A DNA stretch of 28,267 bases from positions 1-28,267 of the forward strand of contig CAZRLQ010000001.1 of assembly GCA_964600725.1 (NCBI GenBank), in the 5' to 3' direction. The notes under the pieces are model-generated. The model was not told the origin of the DNA. It saw nothing but the letters and a program-made list of their open reading frames with translations, and did not search any database. This DNA comes from an uncultured Desulfobacterales bacterium. Lineage in GTDB: Bacteria; Desulfobacterota; Desulfobacteria; Desulfobacterales; CAZRLQ01. A program made the position numbers and the translations under genes. Position 1 is the first letter of the stretch. Each line of letters begins with the position of its first letter. This document shows, one piece after another, positions 161-28,267 of this stretch.

Positions 161-2254
161 TCACCTAGCGCGCTGCCGATCCGCGTCAGATACCGGCTGC
201 AGCACTAAAGCGGTACGTGTGGGGAGATAGAGGCTTAAGAAATGTAAATGTCTGCTGCTTTTATCCTGGGAATCGCTGGCGAGTGCTTCATGATATTGAT
301 CGGAAATCAGCCTTCCGTGTCCCCCATACTCTTTTGCATCACTGTTAAAAATCATCCGATATTTTCCTGACGGCACTTCAAACCGATAGTCCGGATAAGA
401 AGATGTGGGATGGAAATTGAATACAAACAGAAGCCCTGCCCGTTTAAATGCGATAATCTTATCCTTGTGGTGTTCATACATTAGATGTAATTTGCGATGT
501 GTTAAAAGCTGAAAATCCATAACCAGATCGATCATACTGCGGTCAAATTGCGCAAGAAAATGAAATTTCAGATCCGGATCATCAACCAGATGCCACTGAC
601 GGCGTGCATAATGATACGACCAGTTATTCCCCTCTCTGGGAAAATCGATCCAGTCCGGATGTCCGAATTCATTACCCATAAAGTTCAGGTAACCGCTATC
701 CGCTGTTGTAAGTGTAATAAACCGGATCATCTTGTGCAGAGCCATTGCTCTGTCAATGATGATATTATCATCAGTGCACTTCATATGGCCGTAAATTGCT
801 GCACCGGCAAGACGGAAAAATAAAGACTGATCTCCGACAAGGGCTTGATCGTGCGATTCAGCATAACTGATGCTCTTTTCCTCTGTTCTCCTGTTGGTCA
901 GTTCAAACCACAAGTTTCCCATGGGCCAGCTTTCGTCGGTCATTTCCTTAATTAAACGGATCCAGTAATCGGAAATTCCCATTGCAAACCGGTAATCAAA
1001 ACCGACTCCACCCCTGGAGAGGGGAACGGCCAGACCCGGCATGCCGCTTATATCCTCTGCAATGGTAACGGCATCAGGCCGCAACTCGTGGATAACCTTA
1101 TTTGCAAGAGCCAGATATGTAATCGCATCTTCATCCACATCGCCTCCAAAATAATCGTCATACGAAGTAAAAGCCTTTTCAAGACCATGGTGATGATAAA
1201 GCATGCTGGTGACCCCGTCAAAACGGAACCCGTCAATATGGTATGCATCAAGCCAGAAACGGCAGTTTGAAAGAAGAAAATGAAGAACCTGGTATTTGCC
1301 GTAATCAAAACAGCGTGAGTCCCAGGCTGTATGAAAACCCCGCTCTCCTTCATGGAAATATTGGTGCAGTGTGCCGTCGAAACGGCTTAAACCTTCCACT
1401 TCATTTCTTACTGCATGGGAATGAACAATATCCATAATGACCATAAGCCCGGCTCCATGGGCAGTGTCTATAAGCTCTTTCAGTTCCTCAGGTGTTCCGA
1501 AGCGGGATGATGCGGCAAAAAAATTAGATACATGATAGCCAAAGGATCCATAGTAAGGATGCTCTGGAATCGCCATCAGTTGAAGCGCATTGTAACCGGC
1601 TGCAGCAATCCTGGGGATTATATTTTCGGTAAATTCACGATAAGAGCCGACTCTTCCCTCTTTCTGCGCCATACCTACGTGGACTTCATATATGAAGAGG
1701 GGGCCTGATGGACGGATAAAAGCATCATGTCGCCATTGATAGGGAATCAAAGGCCGCCAGATTTGGGCATTAAATATCAGACTTACAGGATCTTGAACCA
1801 CACGCCTTGCATATGCCGGTATACGGTCACCCTTTCCGCCCGGCCAATGGATGCTGAGTCGGTACAGATCTTTATGCTTTAAGCTCTCGGCAGGCAGACG
1901 GATCTCCCATATTCCTTCATTATTTATACGGCTTAAGGCAAATTCTTCTCTTTCCAGCCAACCGGTTAAATCTCCCACCAGATAAATTGCCGCAGCATTC
2001 GGAGCCCATTCTCGAAAAATCCATTGATTATCATGGAAATGCAAACCAAAATACTCATGGCCTGAGGCAAATTCAGTCAAACTCATTCTCCCTTGAGTCA
2101 GTCTGCTTTCCATTTCCCGGATGCGAGATTTCCTGCTTTTCAGCGCTTTTTCATAAGGGCGCAAAAAAAGATCGCATTCCAGAAGATATTGAACCGGATC
2201 AACGGAACTGTTTTGGGAGGATATGTCAAAATATGTTGACGGCCTGTCACTCAT
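161..2254 (-). CDS. glgB: 1,4-alpha-glucan branching enzyme, GH13_8 (eukaryote/Bacteroidetes-type) subfamily
   Basis: 697-aa ORF. Motifs FREWAPNA, FFAASSRFGTPEELK, GFRFDGVTSMLY (nucleophile region), AEDISG, YAESHDQALVGD and EFGHPDWIDFPREGNNWSY are typical of GH13_8. The start is 2 nt after the glgA stop. Confidence 0.95.
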   Translation of the reverse strand: MSDRPSTYFDISSQNSSVDPVQYLLECDLFLRPYEKALKSRKSRIREMESRLTQGRMSLTEFASGHEYFGLHFHDNQWIFREWAPNAAAIYLVGDLTGWLEREEFALSRINNEGIWEIRLPAESLKHKDLYRLSIHWPGGKGDRIPAYARRVVQDPVSLIFNAQIWRPLIPYQWRHDAFIRPSGPLFIYEVHVGMAQKEGRVGSYREFTENIIPRIAAAGYNALQLMAIPEHPYYGSFGYHVSNFFAASSRFGTPEELKELIDTAHGAGLMVIMDIVHSHAVRNEVEGLSRFDGTLHQYFHEGERGFHTAWDSRCFDYGKYQVLHFLLSNCRFWLDAYHIDGFRFDGVTSMLYHHHGLEKAFTSYDDYFGGDVDEDAITYLALANKVIHELRPDAVTIAEDISGMPGLAVPLSRGGVGFDYRFAMGISDYWIRLIKEMTDESWPMGNLWFELTNRRTEEKSISYAESHDQALVGDQSLFFRLAGAAIYGHMKCTDDNIIIDRAMALHKMIRFITLTTADSGYLNFMGNEFGHPDWIDFPREGNNWSYHYARRQWHLVDDPDLKFHFLAQFDRSMIDLVMDFQLLTHRKLHLMYEHHKDKIIAFKRAGLLFVFNFHPTSSYPDYRFEVPSGKYRMIFNSDAKEYGGHGRLISDQYHEALASDSQDKSSRHLHFLSLYLPTRTALVLQPVSDADRQRAR

Positions 2255-2256
2255 AA

Positions 2257-3768
2257 TCAGGTAATAAGGGGTCGCCGCAGCATCTTTTCGTAAAGATCGA
2301 TATACTTTCGTGCTGTGACAAAATGATTAAAGGTTGCAAGGCTCTGGTTCATGACCCGCTCGATTTGACGGTTCTTTAATTCTGCAGGAAGATTATAAAA
2401 ATTTATAGACTGGTCAATAGCCCAAAACAGACCCTGGGAATCAAAGGTTTCAAATAGAAAACCGTTTCCAGAGTCATTTTCGATATCCATATTAACAATC
2501 GTATCATGAATTCCCCCGGTATCATGGGCCACGGGAAGCGACCCATAAATGCAGCCTACCATCTGTGGAAGACCGCATGGTTCAAAGAGGGAAGGCATCA
2601 ATACAAAATCGGATGCAGCATAGGCCTGACGCGCCAGATTCTCATCAAAATCACAGATGGCTACCCTGTCGCTTAGTTGGTGAAAATTTACTATTCTTTT
2701 AAAATGTTCCTGGAATTCACCATTAGCAACAAAGACCACCTCCAGATTCTGCTTCCAGTACTTTGATACAGCCAGATAGAGAATTTCCGCCAACAGACGG
2801 GATCCCTTTTGAATCGTATCCAGTCTGGAAGGCCAGAAAAAGAGCGGAGCAAGGCTGTCCTGAATCAGTCCAAGCCTCTTCTGAAGAGATTTTTTGTTTT
2901 CCAGCTTGCCCCGGACATGGCTTTCCGAATTGTACCTGCAAGCCAGGGCGATATCTGTGGCTGGATTAAAAGAAGGCTCAGGTGCATTTAAAATTCCCGC
3001 AATACATCCGGCATTCCATTTATTGATTATTTCCTGTCTCAAGGGCCGCTGCACAAAATCGTGACGTCCCTGGACAACTTCCATAAGAAAAGTCGGGCTC
3101 ACCGTATTGACAAAATGGGCGGCAAAAACTCCGCTTGCCAGAAGATCTACCGGATTATACTCACGGGCACTTTCATACTCATAAGCTGCATTTTCATAAT
3201 AGAGATGATGCCAGAAATATGCAGCATCTATGCCTCTGTCTTCGATATGGGAAAGAAGAACCTTCATGGTATGAATGTTATGGATCGTAAAAAGACATGG
3301 AATCCCCATTTCTCTCGACATGGCCGGAATAAGACCTGTCATCCAGTCATTGCAATGGATAAGATCCGGTCTGACAGCAGGAATAATATTGTTAATCACC
3401 TCTCTTTGAAAAGCAATGGCAATATTTATATTTTCCCAGCTATAATTTGAGTAAACATGATCCAGATAAAAGAAAGCCCTGTCTTCAGCAAGATGTATTC
3501 TGTCATCCGGCATCTTGCTCCAGATAGTCCTTCGTTCCTTTTCTAAAACGCGCGGCAGCCTGGTATTAAATATACCCCGATAGTCTGGAATAGCCACATG
3601 AACATCTGCGCCTTCTTTGAAAAGAGAGCTTATCAAAGAGGCCGATACATCGGCAAGTCCACCAGCCTTGGCGCTCAGGTAGTTGGCAATGTTTCCCATA
3701 CCGTTGGGAAGATAAGTAACTTCCGGTGTTACAATAAGAACACGGGGGTTCGTTGATGGTTTTGTCAT
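2257..3768 (-). CDS. glgA: Glycogen synthase, GT5 family
   Basis: 503-aa ORF with KAGGLADV (KxGGL), IHCNDWMTG, RLDTIQKG and MPSLFEPCGLPQM motifs. Confidence 0.93.
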   Translation of the reverse strand: MTKPSTNPRVLIVTPEVTYLPNGMGNIANYLSAKAGGLADVSASLISSLFKEGADVHVAIPDYRGIFNTRLPRVLEKERRTIWSKMPDDRIHLAEDRAFFYLDHVYSNYSWENINIAIAFQREVINNIIPAVRPDLIHCNDWMTGLIPAMSREMGIPCLFTIHNIHTMKVLLSHIEDRGIDAAYFWHHLYYENAAYEYESAREYNPVDLLASGVFAAHFVNTVSPTFLMEVVQGRHDFVQRPLRQEIINKWNAGCIAGILNAPEPSFNPATDIALACRYNSESHVRGKLENKKSLQKRLGLIQDSLAPLFFWPSRLDTIQKGSRLLAEILYLAVSKYWKQNLEVVFVANGEFQEHFKRIVNFHQLSDRVAICDFDENLARQAYAASDFVLMPSLFEPCGLPQMVGCIYGSLPVAHDTGGIHDTIVNMDIENDSGNGFLFETFDSQGLFWAIDQSINFYNLPAELKNRQIERVMNQSLATFNHFVTARKYIDLYEKMLRRPLIT

Positions 3769-3803
3769 GGTATGTTTTTATATGAATCATGGTATGTTTT
3801 TAT
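3765..3803. repeat. 17-bp direct repeat (period 22) duplicating the glgA start context
   Basis: tcatggtatgtttttat occurs exactly at 3765-3781 and 3787-3803. Confidence 0.9.
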
Positions 3804-3805
3804 TT

Positions 3806-3873
3806 CTCGTTCCCGAGCTCCAGCGCGGGAATGCATACCATATGGGTTCCCATGCAAAAAGCATGGGAACCAG
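3806..3873. repeat. Inverted doublet of REP-like palindromes (GTTCCC...GGGAA type)
   Basis: Unit 1 (3806-3834) is ctcgttcccgagctccagcgcgggaatgc. Unit 2 (3844-3873) contains the perfect 11-bp stem ggttcccatgc-aaaaa-gcatgggaacc. The two units are inverted, diverged copies of each other. Confidence 0.75.
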
Positions 3874-4006
3874 GCGAAAAGCGCTGCCTCATTTTTATGC
3901 TTTGTAGTGCCCATCATGGCATGGTGGTTCGTGCGACGTCCTTCATTTATCGGTTTACACTTTGGAAGTCAGACCGAAAGCAAAACTGAAAGTTTTCAAA
4001 CGAACC

Positions 4007-6568
4007 CTAAGCCCATGTGATAAGTCCGGGAGTATTTTTTATCCATTCGTCACCCTTGGGTGTCACTCTGGCGGTTAAACCGTAACGGCCAGAACCGCGG
4101 CAGGTCAGTGAGCAGCCATAAAGATATTTGCCATCTCCTCGATCTTCCTTTACATTCATCGTTATTAGATTGCTGCTATCCATGGTTTCCGTGAATTTCA
4201 GATGGCCGTGGTAAAGTTCTACATCCACATCATCCGGCAGTAAATCTCCTAAATGAACAAGTGACGTAACGGCAAAGCTTTCCCCCACACGAAACGGACC
4301 GGTCTTATCCCTTGCCGGAGTCTCTATCCGAATATTGTTCCAGAGAGAGCGAAGCCGCTTGTGCTGCAAACTCAGACTCTTTGCTCTTTCGGCATTATTT
4401 TCAAGCAGGATCTTTGACTGTTTTGCCGCTGGAAGATAAAACTGTTTTACATATTCACTGGTCATCTCATGACTGCAAAAATTCAGCATTACCGTTTTCA
4501 TTGATTCCTTCATCATTTTCAGCCACTGATCCGGTAAACCGCCATTTTTTCTATCATAAAAGCAAGGTATTACTTCATTTTCCAAAATATTATACAGAGC
4601 CTGACTATCAGCAGCATCCTGAAGTCCTGGGTCAGCAAACTCATCCCCCTTTCCGATCTGCCATCCGTTTTTTCCGGAATACGCCTCATACCACCATCCA
4701 TCAGGGATGCTTACATTCAGCACGCCATTTACAGCCGCTTTCATACCGGAAGTTCCACACGCCTCAAAGGGTCGTCTCGGGGTATTGAGCCACACATCGA
4801 CTCCCCTTACAAGAGACTGAGCAAGATGTATTTCATAATCTTCAAGAAAAATAATCCGGTGGCGCGCCTGTGGCTTGCGGACAAAGGTAATCAGCCGCTT
4901 AATCAGCTCCTTTCCTTCATTATCTTTGGGATGAGCCTTTCCGGCAAATATAAACTGGACAGGATATTTTTGAGAAGAGATGATTGATTCCAGACGATCC
5001 TGATCCATCAGCAAAAGATAAGCCCGCTTGTACGCGGTAAAGCGGCGGGCAAAACCGATAGTCAATACATCCTGGTCCAGTACGGATTCAGCTTCCTCCA
5101 TCATTGTTTTAGGCGCATTACGACGGCTGTACTGGCTCATCATCACCCTTCGACAGACATTTACAAGACGGGAACGGCTCATCTCATGGGCACGCCAAAG
5201 CTCTTCGTCGTAAATATCGTCAATCCTTTTGATCGAATCCGGGTTCCATGGATGAAGATTCCACTCGGGACCGAGATAACGCTCAAAAAGCATTGAAATC
5301 TCGTCAGAAACCCAGGTGGGAATATGTATCCCGTTGGTAATATGGGAAATAGGAATCTCTTCTTCCGGACGATCAGGCCAAATGCTAGACCACATCCGCC
5401 TTGCCACTTTTCCGTGCAGTTTACTGACCCCGTTGCAGTGCTGAGCCATTCTCAGTCCAAAAACAAACATGGAAAACTTTCCACCCCTGTCCGAACCAGC
5501 CGGTTGTCCCCACGACAAAATCTCATCTTCCTTGGCACCGACCTTCTTCTCCAGCCTTCTTAAAAACGGCCGGATAAGATCAGCCGGATATTCATCATGA
5601 CCAGCGGCTACAGGTGTATGAGTTGTAAAAACAGTCGTTCGCGGAGCAATCTCCAAGGCTGTTTCAAGATCAACATTATAATCCGAAATGGTCTGAACAA
5701 GCTTTTCCAATGCGGCAAAGGCAGCATGACCTTCATTTATATGGCATACCGAAGGTGTAATCTCCAGAGCGGCAAGAGCACGCATTCCGCCAATCCCCAA
5801 AAGCAGTTCCTGTGAAAGACGTATTTTGGGATCACCCGCATACAGTCTGGAAGTAATCTCCCTGACTTCAGGCGGATTCTCCCGCAGATTTGTATCCAGC
5901 AGGTAAAGAGAAGTACGGCCGACCATAATTTTCAAAACATTAGCATGAATTTCACCATCTATTCCTTCAACAGAAACAGAGACATCCCTTCCCGAGGAAT
6001 CCTTAGCTCTTTCCACAGGAAGGTTGTAAAGATCAATCTCCGGATTCTCCTCCTGCTGCCATCCATCAGAGTCAAGAAACTGGTGAAAATAGCCTTTCCA
6101 GTAGAAAAGCCCGACTCCGGTCAAAGGAATCGCCAGGTCGGAAGCGGCTTTTAGATGATCACCGGCTAATATGCCAAGCCCTCCGGCAAACAGAGGAAGG
6201 CACTCATGGACCCCGAACTCCATGGAGAAATAGGCAACACCGCCCTGTTGTCCATATAGAGGATAAGACTGTTCAGCCGGTGTACAGACAAGCTCTATAA
6301 AACGTTCTTTAATCCGCTCTTGATCAGACAAAAACCCGTTGTCTCTTGCCAGCGCTTCAAGACGGCTTTGAGGAATTCTTGCCAAAAAAACAATGGGATT
6401 TCGTCCGCAATCATCCCAAATTCTGGGATCAATGCGGCGGAAAAGTTCCGTAGCATCAACCTGCCAGCTCCACCAGAGATTTCTGGATAAAACTTCAAGA
6501 AAGGAGAGAGGCTCCGGAATATTCGGAAATACCTGAAATATCTGCAATCGATTCATTTTCTCGGCCAT
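4007..6568 (-). CDS. glgP: Alpha-glucan (glycogen) phosphorylase, GT35
   Basis: 853-aa ORF with LSRNLWWSW, YFSMEFG, AGGLGILAGD, NEGHAAF, GFARRFTAYKR and the PLP-lysine motif EACGTSGMK. The start could alternatively be Met5. Confidence 0.96.
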   Translation of the reverse strand: MAEKMNRLQIFQVFPNIPEPLSFLEVLSRNLWWSWQVDATELFRRIDPRIWDDCGRNPIVFLARIPQSRLEALARDNGFLSDQERIKERFIELVCTPAEQSYPLYGQQGGVAYFSMEFGVHECLPLFAGGLGILAGDHLKAASDLAIPLTGVGLFYWKGYFHQFLDSDGWQQEENPEIDLYNLPVERAKDSSGRDVSVSVEGIDGEIHANVLKIMVGRTSLYLLDTNLRENPPEVREITSRLYAGDPKIRLSQELLLGIGGMRALAALEITPSVCHINEGHAAFAALEKLVQTISDYNVDLETALEIAPRTTVFTTHTPVAAGHDEYPADLIRPFLRRLEKKVGAKEDEILSWGQPAGSDRGGKFSMFVFGLRMAQHCNGVSKLHGKVARRMWSSIWPDRPEEEIPISHITNGIHIPTWVSDEISMLFERYLGPEWNLHPWNPDSIKRIDDIYDEELWRAHEMSRSRLVNVCRRVMMSQYSRRNAPKTMMEEAESVLDQDVLTIGFARRFTAYKRAYLLLMDQDRLESIISSQKYPVQFIFAGKAHPKDNEGKELIKRLITFVRKPQARHRIIFLEDYEIHLAQSLVRGVDVWLNTPRRPFEACGTSGMKAAVNGVLNVSIPDGWWYEAYSGKNGWQIGKGDEFADPGLQDAADSQALYNILENEVIPCFYDRKNGGLPDQWLKMMKESMKTVMLNFCSHEMTSEYVKQFYLPAAKQSKILLENNAERAKSLSLQHKRLRSLWNNIRIETPARDKTGPFRVGESFAVTSLVHLGDLLPDDVDVELYHGHLKFTETMDSSNLITMNVKEDRGDGKYLYGCSLTCRGSGRYGLTARVTPKGDEWIKNTPGLITWA

Positions 6569-6579
6569 CCTTCAATGGT

Positions 6580-6888
6580 TCAAACAATCACAACTGAATT
6601 TTCACAACTGCCGTAAATGCTGGGCAGATATTTATCGGCATCCCAGTCATTTTCCCAGAATGTTTCATCTATGAAATAACGAAACTGATATTCCCTGTTT
6701 GCTTCAAGATCGATTGTAACTGTAAATGTTCCATCCTTTAGTTCTTTCATGGGAGTTGCACAGGTATCCCAGTTGTTGAATTCACCAGCAATATGAACTT
6801 TTCTGGCGGATTCAGCCGCCGCCTTTGGAAGTCTGAAAGTAACCTTGCAAACAGGTCTGGTCTTAAGATATCTTTTTTTAATACTCAT
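6580..6888 (-). CDS. Stand-alone CBM48 / AMPK-beta-like glycogen-binding (isoamylase early set) protein
   Basis: 102 aa counted from the ATG at 6888, which has GAGGA upstream (the ORF track extends to a GTG at 6930). KVTF...VHIAGEFNNWD...PM...GTFTVTIDL...YQFRYFID..WEND matches the CBM48/E-set pattern. Confidence 0.85.
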   Translation of the reverse strand: MSIKKRYLKTRPVCKVTFRLPKAAAESARKVHIAGEFNNWDTCATPMKELKDGTFTVTIDLEANREYQFRYFIDETFWENDWDADKYLPSIYGSCENSVVIV

Positions 6889-7047
6889 AATATCCTCGAC
6901 TCTTTTTAGAAACCCTGAATCCGTGAGCACCGCCCTGCAGCTCCGAATGCAAAAAAGAACCTGCCGGCTTAAAGCCGCCTATGACCGGCCAGTCTCCGGA
7001 TAGACGGAGTGCGGAACACATGGCCTGTCTTTTTTGTAAACATTCAC

Positions 7048-7187
7048 GAGTTGCATTTATGAGAATTTTCGTTCGAGATCAAGGCATGCGAAAAAAAATA
7101 ACCGGAGGCATATAGTTGATATTCATAAGGATTATTTTTTTCGCATAACACAGAGGTCGGGCGAAAAGGCCATAAATCAACAGACTC
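7048..7187. mobile_element. 140-bp long-hairpin MITE-like repeat
   Basis: Nested inverted arms: atttatg/cataaat, ttttcg/cgaaaa, atgcgaaaaaaaataa/ttatttttttcgcat, with GAG...CTC ends. The flanks attcac/atttac may be a degenerate 6-bp TSD. The core is homologous to 27748-27892 in the opposite orientation. Confidence 0.7.
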
Positions 7188-7215
7188 ATTTACGCCATAC
7201 GGGGTTGTTCTTAAA

Positions 7216-7328
7216 GATGAACGTCAACATCGAATGTGAATGTCGCTTCGCTCTTTCTTTTTTAATTAAATCGAAACGCCGAAGGCGTACCATATTCAAC
7301 GTTGGATGTTCAATGTTGAGCGTTCGTT
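7216..7328. repeat. Inverted heptamer-array palindromic element
   Basis: The right arm ttcaacg-ttggatg-ttcaatg-ttgagcg-ttcg (period 7) is complementary to the left arm gaacgtcaacatcgaatgtgaat. There is an internal hairpin acgcc-gaa-ggcgt at 7276-7288. Confidence 0.65.
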
Positions 7329-7446
7329 TTTTTAGAGAAAAAATCCACGGCAGAGCCATCTATCTCTGACCTTGCCCAGATGGCCATGTTTTCAATACTG
7401 AATAAACAAACAAAGGGCTATCCAATTTGTAATTCGTAATTCCTGT

Positions 7447-15939: not shown

Positions 15940-16039
15940 GTAATTTCTCAAAAATTAGGATAATGATAGGAAAATCCCCCCAGTCCCCCTTTTTCAAAGG
16001 GGAAAGCACATAATGTGCCTGAACTTTTTGAGAAGTTGC
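15940..16039. mobile_element. 100-bp MITE, copy A (GTAA-type termini)
   Basis: TIRs gtaatttctcaaaaa / tttttgagaagttgc match at 13/15. Flanks ggagcagc / ggaacagc match at 7/8. A 25-bp core is identical to copy B. Confidence 0.85.
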
Positions 16040-16054
16040 GGAACAGCCGCGCAG

Positions 16055-16083
16055 ATCAAAAATTTTTGTATTTTTTGGGCATT
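16055..16083 (+). repeat. 29-bp repeat, inverted partner of 17241-17269
   Basis: atcaaaaatttttgtattttttgggcatt matches the reverse complement of 17241-17269 at 27/29. Confidence 0.9.
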
Positions 16084-16095
16084 TTATGGTTGGCG

Positions 16096-16117
16096 AAGTT
16101 ATTTCGTCCCCATTTCT
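16096..16117 (+). repeat. 22-bp repeat, direct partner of 17392-17413
   Basis: aagttatttcgtccccatttct vs aagttatttcgtccccgtttct, 21/22 identical. Confidence 0.9.
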
Positions 16118-17193
16118 TAGTTTGATTGATTGAAAAACAGACGGGTAATATCATTATAAAATACGACTATCATAAGCAATATCAGTAAAAATATTCCAGC
16201 CTGCTGGGCTATCTCACGCACCTTTGTATTAATAGGTCGTCTTGTCACGGCCTCTATGAAAAAGAAGAGTATATGACCGCCGTCTAAAACCGGTATGGGG
16301 AGAATATTTAAAATAGCGAGATTAATGCTGAGCAGAGCAATAAAAAACGCCAGATTGGCTGCCCCCTCTCTGGCCTGTTGCCCCGCAAGCTCTGCAATCA
16401 TAATCGGCCCGCCAAGTGTTTTCGTAGAAATAGTGCCCTGTATAATCTTTACAATACTTACAACAGTCAGTTTGGTGATGCTGTATGTCTGGATAATGCT
16501 TTCTGAAAATGCCTGAACCGGATTCAGCTCCTTTATGAAATAATCACCCGATGCCTTAATTCCTATAAGACTTCGTTTTTTATCCTCCCCGAAAATATCT
16601 TTTACTATTTGCATCCTTGGTTTAATTTTTATTTCAAGGAGAGACTCTCCACGAACCACAGAAAATGCAATATTTCTTTCTTTACTTGAGGAAATAATTT
16701 CAGACATCTCATTCCAGCTTACAATCTCAATGCCGTCAATTGCCGCAATAGTATCATCTTTTTTAAGCCCCGCGATTTGAGCCGGGCTTCCTTTTTCAAC
16801 CTCTCCAATAACCGGTTTCAATATAAAAACACCTGAAAACTGAAAAAAAAGATAAAATATAATCAGAGCAAGGATAAGGTTGAAAAAAGGACCGGCTGCA
16901 ACGATCAAAATTCGTTGAAATACATTCTTGTGTGTAAAAGAAATCGGTATATCCGCAGGATCGATTTCCGCATCCGGTTCTTCACCAACCATTTTGACAA
17001 ACCCGCCAAGTGGTACTGCTGAAATACAATAATCTGTAATTCCTATCTTTTTACCGAAAAGCCTGGGACCGAATCCAAGTGAGAATTTAAGGACCCCGAC
17101 ACCTAACATTCTGGCAGTCAGAAAATGCCCCAGTTCATGGAAAAAGATAAGTACGCCCAAAACAATAACAAATGCAAAAATATTAGTCGTCAT
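16117..17193 (-). CDS. rseP: RIP metalloprotease RseP (M50 family, one PDZ domain)
   Basis: 358 aa with HELGH, GGFVKM, AAGPFFN, PDZ (SPAQIAGLKKDD) and NILPIPVLDGG. Confidence 0.96.
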   Translation of the reverse strand: MTTNIFAFVIVLGVLIFFHELGHFLTARMLGVGVLKFSLGFGPRLFGKKIGITDYCISAVPLGGFVKMVGEEPDAEIDPADIPISFTHKNVFQRILIVAAGPFFNLILALIIFYLFFQFSGVFILKPVIGEVEKGSPAQIAGLKKDDTIAAIDGIEIVSWNEMSEIISSSKERNIAFSVVRGESLLEIKIKPRMQIVKDIFGEDKKRSLIGIKASGDYFIKELNPVQAFSESIIQTYSITKLTVVSIVKIIQGTISTKTLGGPIMIAELAGQQAREGAANLAFFIALLSINLAILNILPIPVLDGGHILFFFIEAVTRRPINTKVREIAQQAGIFLLILLMIVVFYNDITRLFFNQSN

Positions 17194-17240: not shown

Positions 17241-17269
17241 AATGTCCAAAAAATACAAAAAATTTTGAT
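17241..17269 (-). repeat. 29-bp repeat, inverted partner of 16055-16083
   Basis: aatgtccaaaaaatacaaaaaattttgat; its reverse complement matches 16055-16083 at 27/29. Confidence 0.9.
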
Positions 17270-17273
17270 GCTC

Positions 17274-17343
17274 GTAGAGGCAACTCCCTGTGGCTGCCCA
17301 GCATTGTGCAATCAATCGGACAGGCACAAGGGCCTGCCCCTGC
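17274..17343. repeat. GTAG-type REP inverted doublet (REPIN-like)
   Basis: gtagaggcaactccctgtggctgccc (17274-17299) and the reverse complement of 17318-17343 (gcaggggcaggcccttgtgcctgtcc) are diverged copies of one G(T/C)AG-led palindromic unit. Confidence 0.75.
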
Positions 17344-17391
17344 TATTTTGTGCCAATATACATCACAGCTTCAGGTGATGCATACTTGGTT

Positions 17392-17413
17392 AAGTTATTT
17401 CGTCCCCGTTTCT
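17392..17413 (+). repeat. 22-bp repeat, direct partner of 16096-16117
   Basis: 21/22 identity to 16096-16117. Confidence 0.9.
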
Positions 17414-18832: not shown

Positions 18833-18920
18833 GTAACTTCTCAAAAAATTCGGGCAGCGATGGAAAAATCCCCCTTTTTCAAAGGGGAAAGCAGACAGAT
18901 ATCCGAACTTATTAAGTTAC
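18833..18920. mobile_element. 88-bp MITE, copy B (GTAAC...GTTAC) with a perfect 8-bp target-site duplication
   Basis: Ends are gtaactt / aagttac. taagattt is present at both 18825-18832 and 18921-18928. The core tccccctttttcaaaggggaaagca (18869-18893) is identical to 15984-16008. Confidence 0.9.
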
Positions 18921-19926: not shown

Positions 19927-20670
19927 CTAAACTTTACCGAATCGACGTTCCCTGTTTTGATACTCTTTTATAATACTGATAAATTCATCTTCGCCAAAAT
20001 CCGGCCATAGAGTATCCGTTATAAAAATTTCCGAATATGCTATCTGCCACAAAAGAAAATTGCTGATCCGCATCTCTCCGCTGGTTCGTATTAACAGATC
20101 CGGATCGGGCATCCCCCTGGTGTACAGATGTTCAGATACAAGCTCGGCTGTTATTGAATCATAATTTATTATTCCTTCTTTGGCTTTTATTGCAATATCT
20201 CGAACCATTTTAACAATTTCCGCCCGCCCCCCATAGCTTAATGCAAGGTTTAAGAGCATGCCATCATTACTTTTTGTCAGATCTTTTGTCTCTTTAACTG
20301 ATATTTTAACATCTTCCGGCAGTTTTTCTATCTGCCCAATGACATTGAAGCGGATATTTTTATTCATAAGTTCATAGATTTCTGATCTGAGAAATTTTTT
20401 AAGGAGAGCCATAAGGGCGGTGATTTCATGTTTAGGACGCTGCCAGTTCTCAGTAGAAAAAGCAAAAAGCGTAAGTATGGGAATTCCGATTTCACGGCAG
20501 TTTCGTACAACAGTGCGGACTGCTTCGGCTCCCTTTTCATGACCTTTAATACGGCTTAAAAAACGTTTTTTCGCCCACCTGCCATTTCCATCCATAATAA
20601 TGGCAATATGAACGGGGAGCAGCGAAGTATCGATATCTGTGCGCCTTATAGAAAAGTCACTAAAATTCAA
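19927..20670 (-). CDS. uppS: Undecaprenyl diphosphate synthase
   Basis: HIAIIMDGNGRWA, FSTENWQRP, LSYGGRAEI and PDLLIRTSGEMRISNFLLWQ. The TTG start overlaps the frr end, so the start is uncertain. Confidence 0.96.
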   Translation of the reverse strand: MNFSDFSIRRTDIDTSLLPVHIAIIMDGNGRWAKKRFLSRIKGHEKGAEAVRTVVRNCREIGIPILTLFAFSTENWQRPKHEITALMALLKKFLRSEIYELMNKNIRFNVIGQIEKLPEDVKISVKETKDLTKSNDGMLLNLALSYGGRAEIVKMVRDIAIKAKEGIINYDSITAELVSEHLYTRGMPDPDLLIRTSGEMRISNFLLWQIAYSEIFITDTLWPDFGEDEFISIIKEYQNRERRFGKV

Positions 20671-21217
20671 GGATTTCTTTCTCTTTTTCTTTATAGATTT
20701 TATCCATGGAATTTATATAATCATCGGTTATTTTCTGTATCCGGGCCTGAGCCTTGAAAAAATCATCTTCCGAAATATCACCATCTTTTTTTAAATTTTT
20801 TAACAGTTCGTTTGAGTCACGTCTGATATTTCGCACTGCAACTTTGTATTCTTCACATGTTTTGTTTACAATCTTAACCAGCTCTTTACGTCTTTCTTCC
20901 GTCAGAGGAGGGATGGAAATACGTATAACCTTACCGTCATTTGATGGAGTCAGACCGAGATCGGATTTTAATATTGCTTTTTCAATATCTTTTATTATTG
21001 AAACATCCCATGGCTGTATCATAATAAGCCGGCTCTCCGGAATTGAAATAGATGCCGTCTGATTAAGGGGTGTCAAGGTGCCGTAATAATCAATTTTTAT
21101 ACCATCTAAAAGATTCTGCGAAGCACGCCCCGTTCGGATCCTCTTTAATTCATAATTAAGAGCATTAACTGACTTGTCCATCCTTTCCCTGGTTTCCTGG
21201 TATGTCGATTCAATCAT
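20660..21217 (-). CDS. frr: Ribosome recycling factor
   Basis: 185 aa with IRTGRAS, YYGTLTPL, QPWD, LGLTPSNDG and PPLTEERRKELVK. Confidence 0.98.
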   Translation of the reverse strand: MIESTYQETRERMDKSVNALNYELKRIRTGRASQNLLDGIKIDYYGTLTPLNQTASISIPESRLIMIQPWDVSIIKDIEKAILKSDLGLTPSNDGKVIRISIPPLTEERRKELVKIVNKTCEEYKVAVRNIRRDSNELLKNLKKDGDISEDDFFKAQARIQKITDDYINSMDKIYKEKEKEILEF

Positions 21218-21236
21218 TGTATTTGCCTTTCAATTA

Positions 21237-21522
21237 CCTGAATTAAGCGCTTAACCTTTAGCGGCTAACTATTAGTGGTTCATCACGGATTAGTGTGGTA
21301 ATCCATAATGAACAGCTAATCGCTAATACCTGATGGCATAAGTTCAATTAGTGTATGTTTGATAAATAGAATCTCCGCAATAATCCGCTATGATCCCTAT
21401 TAGTTTAATGATTACAAGATGTTTTGCCATTACAAATTCTCACCCGTTGGGTGTTGTTTCTATTTAACGTAATATCTTGATTTTTCAAAGCTAAACGCTA
21501 ATGGCTGATCGCTTAATTCAGG
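21237..21522. mobile_element. 286-bp MITE-like insertion (CCTGAATTAAGCG termini, 5-bp TSD) in the pyrH stop codon
   Basis: Perfect 13-bp TIRs at 21237-21249 and 21510-21522, continuing about 14/21 inward. aatta is duplicated at 21232-21236 and 21523-21527. There is an internal three-segment hairpin at 21271-21320. Confidence 0.85.
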
Positions 21523-22237
21523 AATTACTTATCATAGTACCGGTTTCTTCCCCACAAACAACTTTTTTGATATTTTCTTTTGTCTTAAGATTAAAAACGA
21601 CAAGGGGAAGCCGATTATCCATCGCAAGTGAAATCGCAGTCATATCCATTACTTTTAGCTGTTTTTCAAGAACCTCCATATAAGTCACTTTTTTTATAAA
21701 TTCAGCATCGCGATTCAAAACCGGATCTGAATCGTAAAGACCGTTAACTTTAGTCGCTTTTAATATAACTTCGGCATGAATCTCCTGAGCCCTTAAAACT
21801 GCCGCAGTATCAGTTGTGAAATAGGGACTTCCCGTACCGGCGGCAAATATTACCAGCCGGCCTTTCTCAAGATGGCGGACAGCTTTTCGGATAATGCAAG
21901 GCTCTGCTATTTCATGCATCGCTATGGCTGTTTGCAGTCGCACCTGAATACCCTTTTTTTCCAGAACATCCTGAAGCGCAAGGCTGTTAATCACTGTGGC
22001 CAACATTCCCATCTGATCGGCAGAGGCTCTATCCATTCCGTAGGAACCGGCAGCAACTCCCCTGAATATGTTGCCGCCCCCGACGACAATAGCGATCTGA
22101 ATACCGAGATCAAATATAGAATAGACCTCATCTGCTACATACTGTAAAACATCAGGGCTTATTCCAAAACCCTGATCCCCCATAAGAGCTTCACCGCTTA
22201 ACTTTAACAGAATCCTTTTGAATCGGGGAGTTTCCAA
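21518..22237 (-). CDS. pyrH: Uridylate kinase
   Basis: 239 aa with [32 protein letters not shown] and [15 protein letters not shown] start with GGAGAGG upstream. Confidence 0.98.
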
Positions 22238-23829: not shown

Positions 23830-23840
23830 ATAATATAATT

Positions 23841-23858
23841 CTGAATTAAGCGATCAGC
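23841..23858 (+). repeat. Solo terminus of the pyrH-frr element
   Basis: ctgaattaagcgatcagc is the exact reverse complement of 21504-21521 (18/18). Confidence 0.85.
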
Positions 23859-23967
23859 TGTCAGCCTCTTCCCTGATCTTGCAGAAAACTTCTCATTCTA
23901 AGACAGAATCCTTAGTATAAAAACCGTTTTTTGTATCAAATTAAATAGATGCCCGCAACTATTTTTT

Positions 23968-23999
23968 CCATAAATCAACAGACTCATAAATCCACGGCA
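23968..23999 (+). repeat. Composite repeat fragment matching 7170-7189 and 7341-7352
   Basis: ccataaatcaacagactcat (20/20 with 7170-7189) is immediately followed by aaatccacggca (12/12 with 7341-7352). Confidence 0.85.
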
Positions 24000-26237: not shown

Positions 26238-26330
26238 TGTCTTATTTAAATCTCCTCTAACTATATTTTACGCTCTTTATTTTTCTGCTGTTAAAATTTC
26301 CGTATTCCCTGCCTGCACCGCAAAGTCTCA

Positions 26331-27747: not shown

Positions 27748-27892
27748 AGTGCCCATCCGTAAATGACTATTTTGCCCGATATCTGCGCTGCGCTGAAATT
27801 TTAATCCTCAAAATACGGGGGTTGTATTCCTTCGGTTAAAATTTTAGCGCGCCTTGATCGTCAGTAAATTAGCCTATTTATGGACGGACACT
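27748..27892. mobile_element. 145-bp long-hairpin MITE-like repeat (same core family as 7048-7187)
   Basis: TIRs agtgcccatccgtaaat / atttatggacggacact match at 14/17. Core blocks gcccga..tctg, taatcct, cct.cggtta and gccttgatc are shared with the reverse complement of 7048-7187. Confidence 0.75.
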
Positions 27893-27902
27893 GCTTAGCG
27901 CT

Positions 27903-27957
27903 ATCCTAAAAATACGGCAATGTATTTCTGCAGTTAAAACTTTATTCTGCATTGACC
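27903..27957 (+). repeat. Degenerate tandem half-copy of the hairpin-element core
   Basis: atcctaaaaatacggcaatgtatttctgcagttaaaactttattctgcattgacc aligns with 27804-27859 (atcctcaaaatacgggggttgtattccttcggttaaaattttagcgcgccttgatc). Confidence 0.7.
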
Positions 27958-28267
27958 TTTCAAAAAAATTTCTCGTTTCGGTCAACATTAATGAAAGCTT
28001 TTATAATTCTGGTTAGATTTGTTCGACCCGGAACCGTAAAACCAAAAAGATAGTCAAGCTGTTTCGAGGATTTTGTCTGTTTAAAGCAAAAACAGAAGGA
28101 TCAGTAAAAATGATATGGTCAGGAGTCAGCAATGGAAATTATTGCTTTTTCCCCAAGCCTTTTAAATCTTTCAGGGAGGGTTCCCTGCGTTGTAAAATAT
28201 ACTAAATATACAACCTAAATCCTGCAAGCGCCGGGTTTGCCGAAGACCTGCCCGCGGCAGGCAGGTG

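Follow-up and report, generated by a model that had tools for sequence, protein, structure and literature searches.

The closest described case to the insertion reported here is Chunjie, a transposable element of the miniature inverted-repeat kind (MITE) found in Geobacter uraniireducens Rf4 (Chen et al. 2008; PMC3184786, PMC10969869). Chunjie is A+T rich, non-coding, and 178-235 bp long, with terminal inverted repeats (TIRs) and flanking direct repeats, in a genome of delta-proteobacterial grade. It lies inside an operon without destroying it and forms a very stable RNA hairpin; many of its copies are partial, without TIRs or direct repeats, and some overlap genes. The Correia/NEMIS elements of Neisseria, RUP of S. 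pneumoniae, and ERIC are likewise intergenic repeats shorter than 300 bp, with TIRs and a target duplication, and are co-transcribed as stem-loops (PMC2229807). Here we describe a 286-bp insertion in a 28,267-nt stretch of DNA from an uncultured Desulfobacterales bacterium (contig CAZRLQ010000001.1; this whole stretch is the window referred to below). The insertion lies between pyrH, the gene for UMP kinase, and frr, the gene for ribosome recycling factor, and its terminus supplies the stop codon of pyrH. On the sequence features set out below, the pyrH-frr spacer very probably consists of two non-autonomous elements of the MITE type, one nested in the other.

The resemblance to Chunjie extends to base composition, lack of coding capacity, TIRs, flanking direct repeats, type of genome, placement inside an operon that is not destroyed, and a very stable RNA hairpin. 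The two cases, compared by description, differ in their ends: Chunjie has 21-bp TIRs and 9-bp duplications, whereas here the outer element has 13-bp TIRs (34 bp when extended) with a 5-bp duplication, the inner element has 22-bp TIRs with an 8-bp duplication, and the ends are heptamer-periodic. In Correia/NEMIS, RUP, and ERIC, the duplication is mostly TA and a parent is known or suspected (for RUP, IS630-Spn1), in contrast to the nested pair described here, with its duplications of 5 and 8 bp.

Genes in the pyrH part of the window all lie on the minus strand, in the conserved cluster prfA-prmC / rpsB-tsf-pyrH-frr-uppS-cdsA-dxr-rseP. The pyrH open reading frame (ORF; 21518..22237, minus strand) encodes 239 aa ending ...GTMISNS*, matches Pfam AA_kinase, and has named UMP kinase homologues, the closest of which (79-83% identical) come from metagenome-assembled genomes (MAGs) of uncultured Desulfobacterales or Desulfobacteraceae, including Eth-SRB1. 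The frr ORF (20660..21217, minus strand) encodes 185 aa and matches Pfam RRF. The insertion (21237..21522) is bounded by perfect 13-bp TIRs, CCTGAATTAAGCG at 21237..21249 on the plus strand and its exact reverse complement at 21510..21522 on the minus strand; the left arm goes on as 7-nt units to ~21276, and together the arms stretch to 34 nt at 79% complementarity. Directly touching the two ends are copies of the 5-bp repeat AATTA, one on the frr side (21232..21236) and one on the pyrH side (21523..21527). Taking AATTAC as a 6-bp repeat is an alternative parse that leaves the empty site unchanged. The TIRs and the AATTA duplication had been proposed in the initial annotation of this DNA, and both are read directly at these positions.

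The right terminus supplies the present end of pyrH. The 3' end of the gene reads ATG ATA AGT AAT TCC TGA, in which the TGA (21518..21520, minus strand) occupies positions 3-5 of the terminal repeat of the outer element. On the sense strand, the pyrH-side repeat is TAATT, and its last T would be the first base of an ancestral TGA. Deleting the element and one AATTA in silico gave AGT AAT TGA AAGGCAAATACA ATG, that is, a PyrH ending ...MISN* with the frr start codon 12 nt farther on, as the initial annotation had reconstructed it. The restored protein has 238 aa, the same length as in 101 of 120 homologues, which have ends such as GTRISN and GTQISN. On the other side of the insertion, the frr Shine-Dalgarno sequence GAAAGG (21226..21231, minus strand) is intact: it follows the element by 5 nt and precedes the ATG by 8 nt. 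From this reconstruction, the effects of the insertion would be one additional Ser in PyrH and the growth of the spacer from 12 to 300 nt.

We then asked how often such a configuration arises by chance. A perfect 13-bp inverted repeat inside 600 nt was present in 58 of 200 Markov simulations of 28 kb (29%) and so is by itself weak evidence of an element. Inverted repeats of 10 bp that had a 5-bp direct repeat beside them averaged only 0.05 per simulated window, and the chance expectation for a 13-bp inverted repeat with an adjacent 5-bp duplication was ~5e-4. GC content is ~40% over 21001-22000, and the insertion region is AT-rich. The 371-nt stretch holding the insertion is identical in four independent ENA assemblies (L001-L004), which differ from the window by 6-9 single-nucleotide polymorphisms (SNPs) elsewhere in 6.7 kb. 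We also aligned Logan contigs from twelve metagenome runs on the locus, and contigs from nine runs span the left junction of the insertion. Because the same 371 nt occur in the four assemblies and these contigs cross the junction, the insertion is not an assembly artefact. The runs carrying the locus are marine sediment and hydrothermal-vent metagenomes.

The initial annotation treated the 286 bp as a single element. Its ends hold, and its unity does not. Inside it is a second unit of 120 bp (21277..21396), whose ends, GGTTCATCACGGATTAGTGTGG and, reverse-complemented, GGATCATAGCGGATTATTGCGG, match at 17 of 22 positions, and which is directly flanked by exact copies of the 8-bp repeat CTATTAGT at 21269..21276 and 21397..21404. 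Many metagenome contigs begin or stop matching at 21276/21277 or at 21396 and then run into unrelated AT-rich flanks; contigs that break at 21276 and 21396 number dozens per metagenome and have diverse flanks. Summed Logan depth in run X1 was ~17 in the flanks of the insertion and 500-7,400 within it, in a modular rather than a uniform profile, and over the Logan runs the summed depth inside the insertion was 30-400 times that of the flanks. A 794-nt contig of run X1 with a depth of 19 (locus, 17) matches 21236-21276 beside a different flank (...CCATGTTTGTGATA) and passes from 21276 straight into TTAATGATTACA (21405-21416), with a single CTATTAGT. By its sequence, this contig holds the outer element a second time, at a different locus and with no inner element in it, and the empty site of the inner element is thus seen through a paralogous outer copy. 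Read in this way, the 286-bp insertion is a 120-bp MITE with an 8-bp duplication nested in a MITE of ~158 bp (its length once the inner element is set aside) with a 5-bp duplication; the outer element, the inner element, and the 8-bp duplication of the latter make up the whole. The inner insertion would then be the later event. We also considered whether the inner part (GTTTTGCCATTACAAAT...) is a CRISPR repeat and rejected this; the depth profile follows no repeat unit, and there is no array.

Both elements have the hallmarks of MITEs: TIRs, exact and adjacent target-site duplications (one copy each), small non-coding bodies of 158 and 120 bp, and multiple copies in unrelated flanks. For the inner family, these copies are dozens of contigs; for the outer family, they are the X1 contig, a locus in a GTDB MAG (L016), a locus on a JGI contig (L045), Logan contigs, and a solo end in the window. 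The repeat families of both elements are plentiful in metagenomes from vents and sediments. No ORF of at least 30 aa lies inside the insertion, and stops occur in every frame of both elements. The inner element, with GG ends and an 8-bp duplication, would fit several insertion sequence (IS) families.

The ends of the outer element have a 7-nt periodicity. Each arm opens with CCTGAAT, followed in one arm by TAAGCGA TCAGCCA TTAGCGT TTAGCTT and in the opposite arm by TAAGCGC TTAACCT TTAGCGG CTAACTA, so that each arm is built of 4-5 degenerate TTAGCNN units. The lag-7 self-similarity of the arms, 0.47, was reached by 0 of 5,000 shuffles, and TRF reported no period-7 array at the pyrH-frr insertion. 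Cyanobacterial STRR heptamers are another comparable class of 7-nt repeats. The TAACTGA arrays of a Guaymas Basin Beggiatoaceae filament, which also occur in cyanobacteria and Bacteroidetes (MacGregor 2015, PMC4679880), are similarly 7-nt periodic intergenic repeats with stops, and in some cases they cover the upstream gene's stop codon, as the outer element does. They are exact tandem units without TIRs or duplications, unlike the degenerate TTAGCNN units in inverted arms described here. In vent and seep metagenomes, the depth of repeats with TTAGCNN ends is hundreds of times that of the flanking genes. By analogy with the TAACTGA networks of the co-occurring Beggiatoaceae, the heptamer-ended mosaic repeats could be a distinct, undescribed Desulfobacterales class in which the heptamer arrays bind a transposase or an RNA or DNA regulator and copies at operon junctions have been exapted. 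In such a case, a terminal stem containing the pyrH stop, melted by the terminating ribosome, could keep frr translation coupled to pyrH over 300 nt. We regard this as unlikely.

The terminus of the outer element (...GCTTAATTCAGG / GCTGATCGCTTAATTCAGG) recurs elsewhere with different flanks. The initial annotation's reading of the junction between the pyrH stop and the frr Shine-Dalgarno sequence as the site of a mobile-type repeat insertion is supported. A Deltaproteobacteria MAG in GTDB (L016) matches ~125-135 nt of the outer right half at 76-77% identity, with the flank CATAAT. The JGI contig L045 carries a 62-nt mini-element between divergent ORFs, with terminus GCTGATCGCTTAATTCAGG and flank TATTTG, and has two further repeat families in common with the window. 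Logan contigs with terminus GCTGATCGCTTAATTCAGG have the flanks TTTCAT and CAG|CCGACAGGG, and outer sub-families finish in ...GCTCAACTTAGG or ...GCTCAAATAAG. In the window itself, a truncated solo end of the family (TCTGAATTAAGCGATCAGCTGTCAGC) lies at 23840..23865 on the plus strand, 66 nt upstream of rpsB, and 23 nt of it (23841-23863) are identical to the L045 mini-element. From this solo end comes the sole sigma-70-like match (CTGACA-18-AATTAT; 23835-23864, minus strand) in the 270-nt prmC-rpsB spacer; one such match against 0.6 expected is not significant, and the promoter of the rpsB operon may be partly element-derived.

To find further copies and a parent, we scanned the GTDB genomes and the JGI metagenomes once each with the 18-mer end CTGAATTAAGCGATCAGC, using exact matches, by which one-base differences are missed. 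The scans returned 43 loci, of which only L016, L035, and L045 are family members and the remainder are mostly chance matches, several of them in lepA, where the bases encode ADRLIQ. A 19-mer of GCTGATCGCTTAATTCAGG at L048 4068-4088 is likewise coding sequence for this conserved LepA motif, which is probably the source of more of the unrelated hits among L006-L048. The species of the window is absent from the GTDB and JGI collections at the pyrH-frr site. Viral contigs (searched with three k-mers) and PLSDB plasmids gave no matches. A TIR match at L016 878-890 that seemed to bound a 1.9-kb element was rejected, being a chance match with three mismatches around an ORF that is no transposase. 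That ORF resembles an RNA methyltransferase by sequence, with no family search made.

These results bear on the proposal, made in the initial annotation, that the whole insertion is a single IS1380-like MITE, with IS1634 named as another possible parent, and that its terminal stop codon is an adaptation for landing harmlessly at gene ends. Elements of the IS1380 family have ends beginning with CC and make 4-5-bp duplications; duplications of 4-6 bp are also made by IS701, the IS1634 group, and Tn3-derived MITEs. The AATTA copy has CC ends (CCTGAATT...) and a duplication of this size, a combination that is not family-specific, and each outer end carries TGA and TAA within its first 10 nt. Read into the outer element from either side, two of the frames meet a stop inside three codons (TGA at 3-5, TAA at 8-10), the heptamer TTAGCNN itself carries TAG, and the right TIR has, on the pyrH sense strand, a TGA and a TAA in two different frames. 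In run X1, the second copy has a flank, known for only 30 nt, that is open in a frame that would likewise end on the TAA of the TIR. Against an adaptation, the element is composite, the third frame is open for 5 or 20 codons, and the placed members of the family (L016, L045, and the solo end upstream of rpsB) are 5' of genes or intergenic, with none at a stop codon in this small sample. Stops in all frames are moreover usual in AT-rich MITEs: RUP, the 155-bp Correia element, and CIR all have them (PMC2229807). The GTDB and JGI end scans gave only MITE-like or chance matches, with no full-length element, no transposase, and no matching IS end. We saw no evidence that the family targets gene ends or is selected for them, and we consider a single IS1380-like element adapted to gene ends very unlikely.

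A different possibility is that no transposition took place and that modules of intergenic repeats, comparable to BIME/REP or heptamer arrays, were put together as a mosaic spacer through recombination, slippage, or gene conversion. The inverted ends would then be two opposed copies of one heptamer module and the direct repeats coincidental. In favour of it are the modular depth, the internal breaks at 21276, 21318, 21396, 21436, 21464, 21506, and 21513, and the 7-nt periodicity of the arms, as are the position of the terminus within a bigger repeat in L035, the other repeat types that fill the same spacer in the relatives L051 and L052, and the fact that the search for a transposase in the window, the fetched loci, and the GTDB and JGI scans gave none. 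BIME/REP of enterobacteria are similar in being mosaics of short modules in operon spacers that are transcribed as hairpins. They differ in being RAYT-linked, GC-rich palindromes of 20-40 nt without target duplications, whereas the units here are AT-rich with exact 5- and 8-bp duplications. These direct repeats abut two separate inverted-repeat units, an arrangement for which the outer unit alone has the low chance expectation given above; excision restores an in-frame stop and the length typical of the family, and one related copy lacks the inner unit and has CTATTAGT once. We therefore find an origin without transposition quite unlikely.

Several observations nonetheless weigh against two MITEs having moved here by transposition. 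No transposase or autonomous partner with matching ends was found in the window, in the fetched loci, or in the GTDB and JGI end scans, in which one-base end differences are missed. The terminus in L035 is internal to a larger tandem repeat, so the outer family is mosaic and may have spread in part by recombination. At the depth of this genome, there are few copies of intact outer ends. The 5-bp duplication is documented for the pyrH copy only, just as the 8-bp duplication is for one copy only; direct repeats of 5 nt exist in L016 and L045, but they stand 3-4 nt from the CCTG motif and are suggestive only. The twelve runs yielded no empty allele for the outer insertion, with no contig that joins across the element, and the closest PyrH without the insertion is only 82-83% identical. 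As separate observations on these loci, L035 contains a composite unit of ~400 nt in tandem, and a widespread GTCATTCCGGCGGAGGCCGGAATCC-type repeat lies beside the heptamer-ended repeat at L035 1-700 and L016 2480-2580.

The initial annotation predicted an empty allele in relatives; the predicted junction, ...AGTAATTGAAAGGCAAATACAATG, was not found in the assemblies and runs examined, in all of which the site is filled, and in a database of 5.8 billion proteins a search for PyrH homologues returned only ...MISNS variants of the window's protein (P0001-P0005) and no ...MISN*. The strain in runs X2 and X4 has a T>C change at 21234, in the frr-side AATTA, and since it carries the insertion with this change, the insertion is older than the divergence of these strains. 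Three of four relatives examined end pyrH on TGA. Their pyrH-frr spacers vary: 14 and 29 nt in L053 and L049, where the Shine-Dalgarno sequence ACAGGTGAAAG is like TGAAAGG in the window, and 192 and 225 nt in L051 and L052 (Eth-SRB1), where other repeats fill them. A likeness of the form CAGGT...GAAAG between the element/flank junction and the frr leader ACAGGTGAAAG of the relatives was set aside as coincidental, CAGG being the end of the element at unrelated loci. The initial annotation also held that the insertion uncouples pyrH from frr. The spacer would indeed have grown from 12 to 300 nt, but L051 and L052 already have spacers of 192 and 225 nt, so tight pyrH-frr coupling is, to judge by these spacers, not conserved in the clade, and the junction tolerates insertions. 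In L052, an 8-nt periodic array (GAGTAGTC-like) begins right at the pyrH TGA (2214-2290), and in L051 the spacer with other repeats spans 1503-1695. Repeats seem to have landed at this junction, or to have been tolerated there, more than once.

We asked whether the insertion has signs of a functional RNA retained by selection, such as an attenuator, a hairpin for processing or stability, or a stem through which frr translation is coupled again to termination at pyrH. On the sense strand, the insertion RNA folds with -85.9 kcal/mol (z = -7.6), and the TIRs form its basal stem. One end of the inner element is predicted to form a 15-bp hairpin (21278..21313, minus strand) that allows two G-U pairs on the operon sense strand only. 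The sole terminator-like signal, a hairpin at 21441-21453 with a T-run (21441..21463, plus strand), lies opposite the operon, no U-run follows the hairpin on the sense strand, and no intrinsic terminator or attenuator was therefore recognised on the sense strand between pyrH and frr. Because this sole hairpin with a T-run is antisense, the orientation of the element would permit operon read-through. No sigma-70-like promoter lies on the sense strand within the element. Selection could be read into the stable fold, the strand-specific G-U pairs, the orientation that avoids a terminator-like signal, and the identity of the element in four assemblies, and Correia elements are known RNase III targets (PMC10969869). 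The structure, though, follows trivially from inverted ends, and the same families occur at unrelated loci. One of the two G-U positions is a change private to this copy relative to the family consensus (21307 A>G, where A>G is the majority), and the flank SNP density of 4-9 per 6.7 kb predicts fewer than 0.5 SNP in 286 bp, so that identity shows no constraint. Rfam 15 gave no match at the gathering score in the window, and permissive settings gave only a chance snoRNA match with E = 4.8. A selected cis-acting RNA is, in our view, very improbable.

We return to two nested MITEs and propose the following series of events. A ~158-bp outer element, with ends of CCTGAAT followed by four or five degenerate TTAGCNN heptamers, would have inserted into TAATT|GA, where pyrH ends, with a duplication of 5 bp. 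This would have split the ancestral TGA, and by luck of frame the TGA at element positions 3-5 would close the reading frame one codon on, adding Ser239, with the frr ribosome-binding site unharmed just past the opposite end. A 120-bp element from another family, one of high copy number, would afterwards have entered the left heptamer array of the outer element and duplicated CTATTAGT. Neither element encodes a protein, and both were presumably moved in trans by DDE-type transposases encoded outside the window. The composite would then have become fixed in the population, where the transcript of the rpsB-tsf-pyrH-frr-uppS-cdsA operon presumably includes it as a long stem-loop. Most likely the insertion is tolerated and close to neutral.

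Other repeats are scattered over the window. A hairpin repeat, CCCCTTTTTCAAAGGGG (25 nt identical, ~60 nt similar), lies downstream of rseP (15950-16008) and of cdsA (18844-18893) and is a further family in operon spacers. On either side of the rseP gene (16117-17193), at 16055-16117 and 17241-17413, lie the copies of a 29-nt inverted repeat (93%) and of a 28-nt direct repeat (89%), and the dxr-rseP spacer is unusually long (435 nt). The 29-nt inverted repeats raised the possibility that the ORF at 16117-17193 is an IS; this was rejected, as the ORF is RseP, an M50 protease. Upstream of rho, two or three copies of a repeat family (AATCCTCAAAATACGGGGGTTGTATTCCTTCGGTTAAAATTT) lie at 27798-27848, 27900-27945, and 26277-26299; the family is shared at 86% with L045 (818-867), which itself carries the MITE terminus. 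An identical 20-mer, CCATAAATCAACAGACTCAT, occurs at 7170-7189, upstream of the gene for a 1431-aa debranching enzyme, and at 23968-23987, in the prmC-rpsB spacer, and the motif AAAAWTTCTCATTYTARGACAG occurs at 122-153 and, beside the solo MITE end, at 23885-23910 (91% identical to L045 885-916). A GC-rich repeat (GCCGAAGACCTGCCCGCGGCAGGCAGGTG) makes up the last 40 nt of the window (28230-28267). All the independent assemblies stop near the same places as the window does, and Logan contig L005 breaks off 39 nt into the MITE; assemblies of this organism are fragmented by repeats.

These results correct the annotation of the locus: the last residue of PyrH and its stop codon would come from mobile DNA, and the 300-nt spacer would be two nested MITEs and not a regulatory region. 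Our full-text literature searches found no description of either family, and the TIR string gave only unrelated primer matches; the two thus appear to be previously undescribed MITE families of uncultured marine Desulfobacterales. Both families break metagenome assemblies, with contigs that end inside the element. The pyrH copy provides a natural case in which an insertion at a stop codon would be buffered by the stops in the element's own end, an ordinary insertion of a bacterial repeat that calls for no new mechanism.

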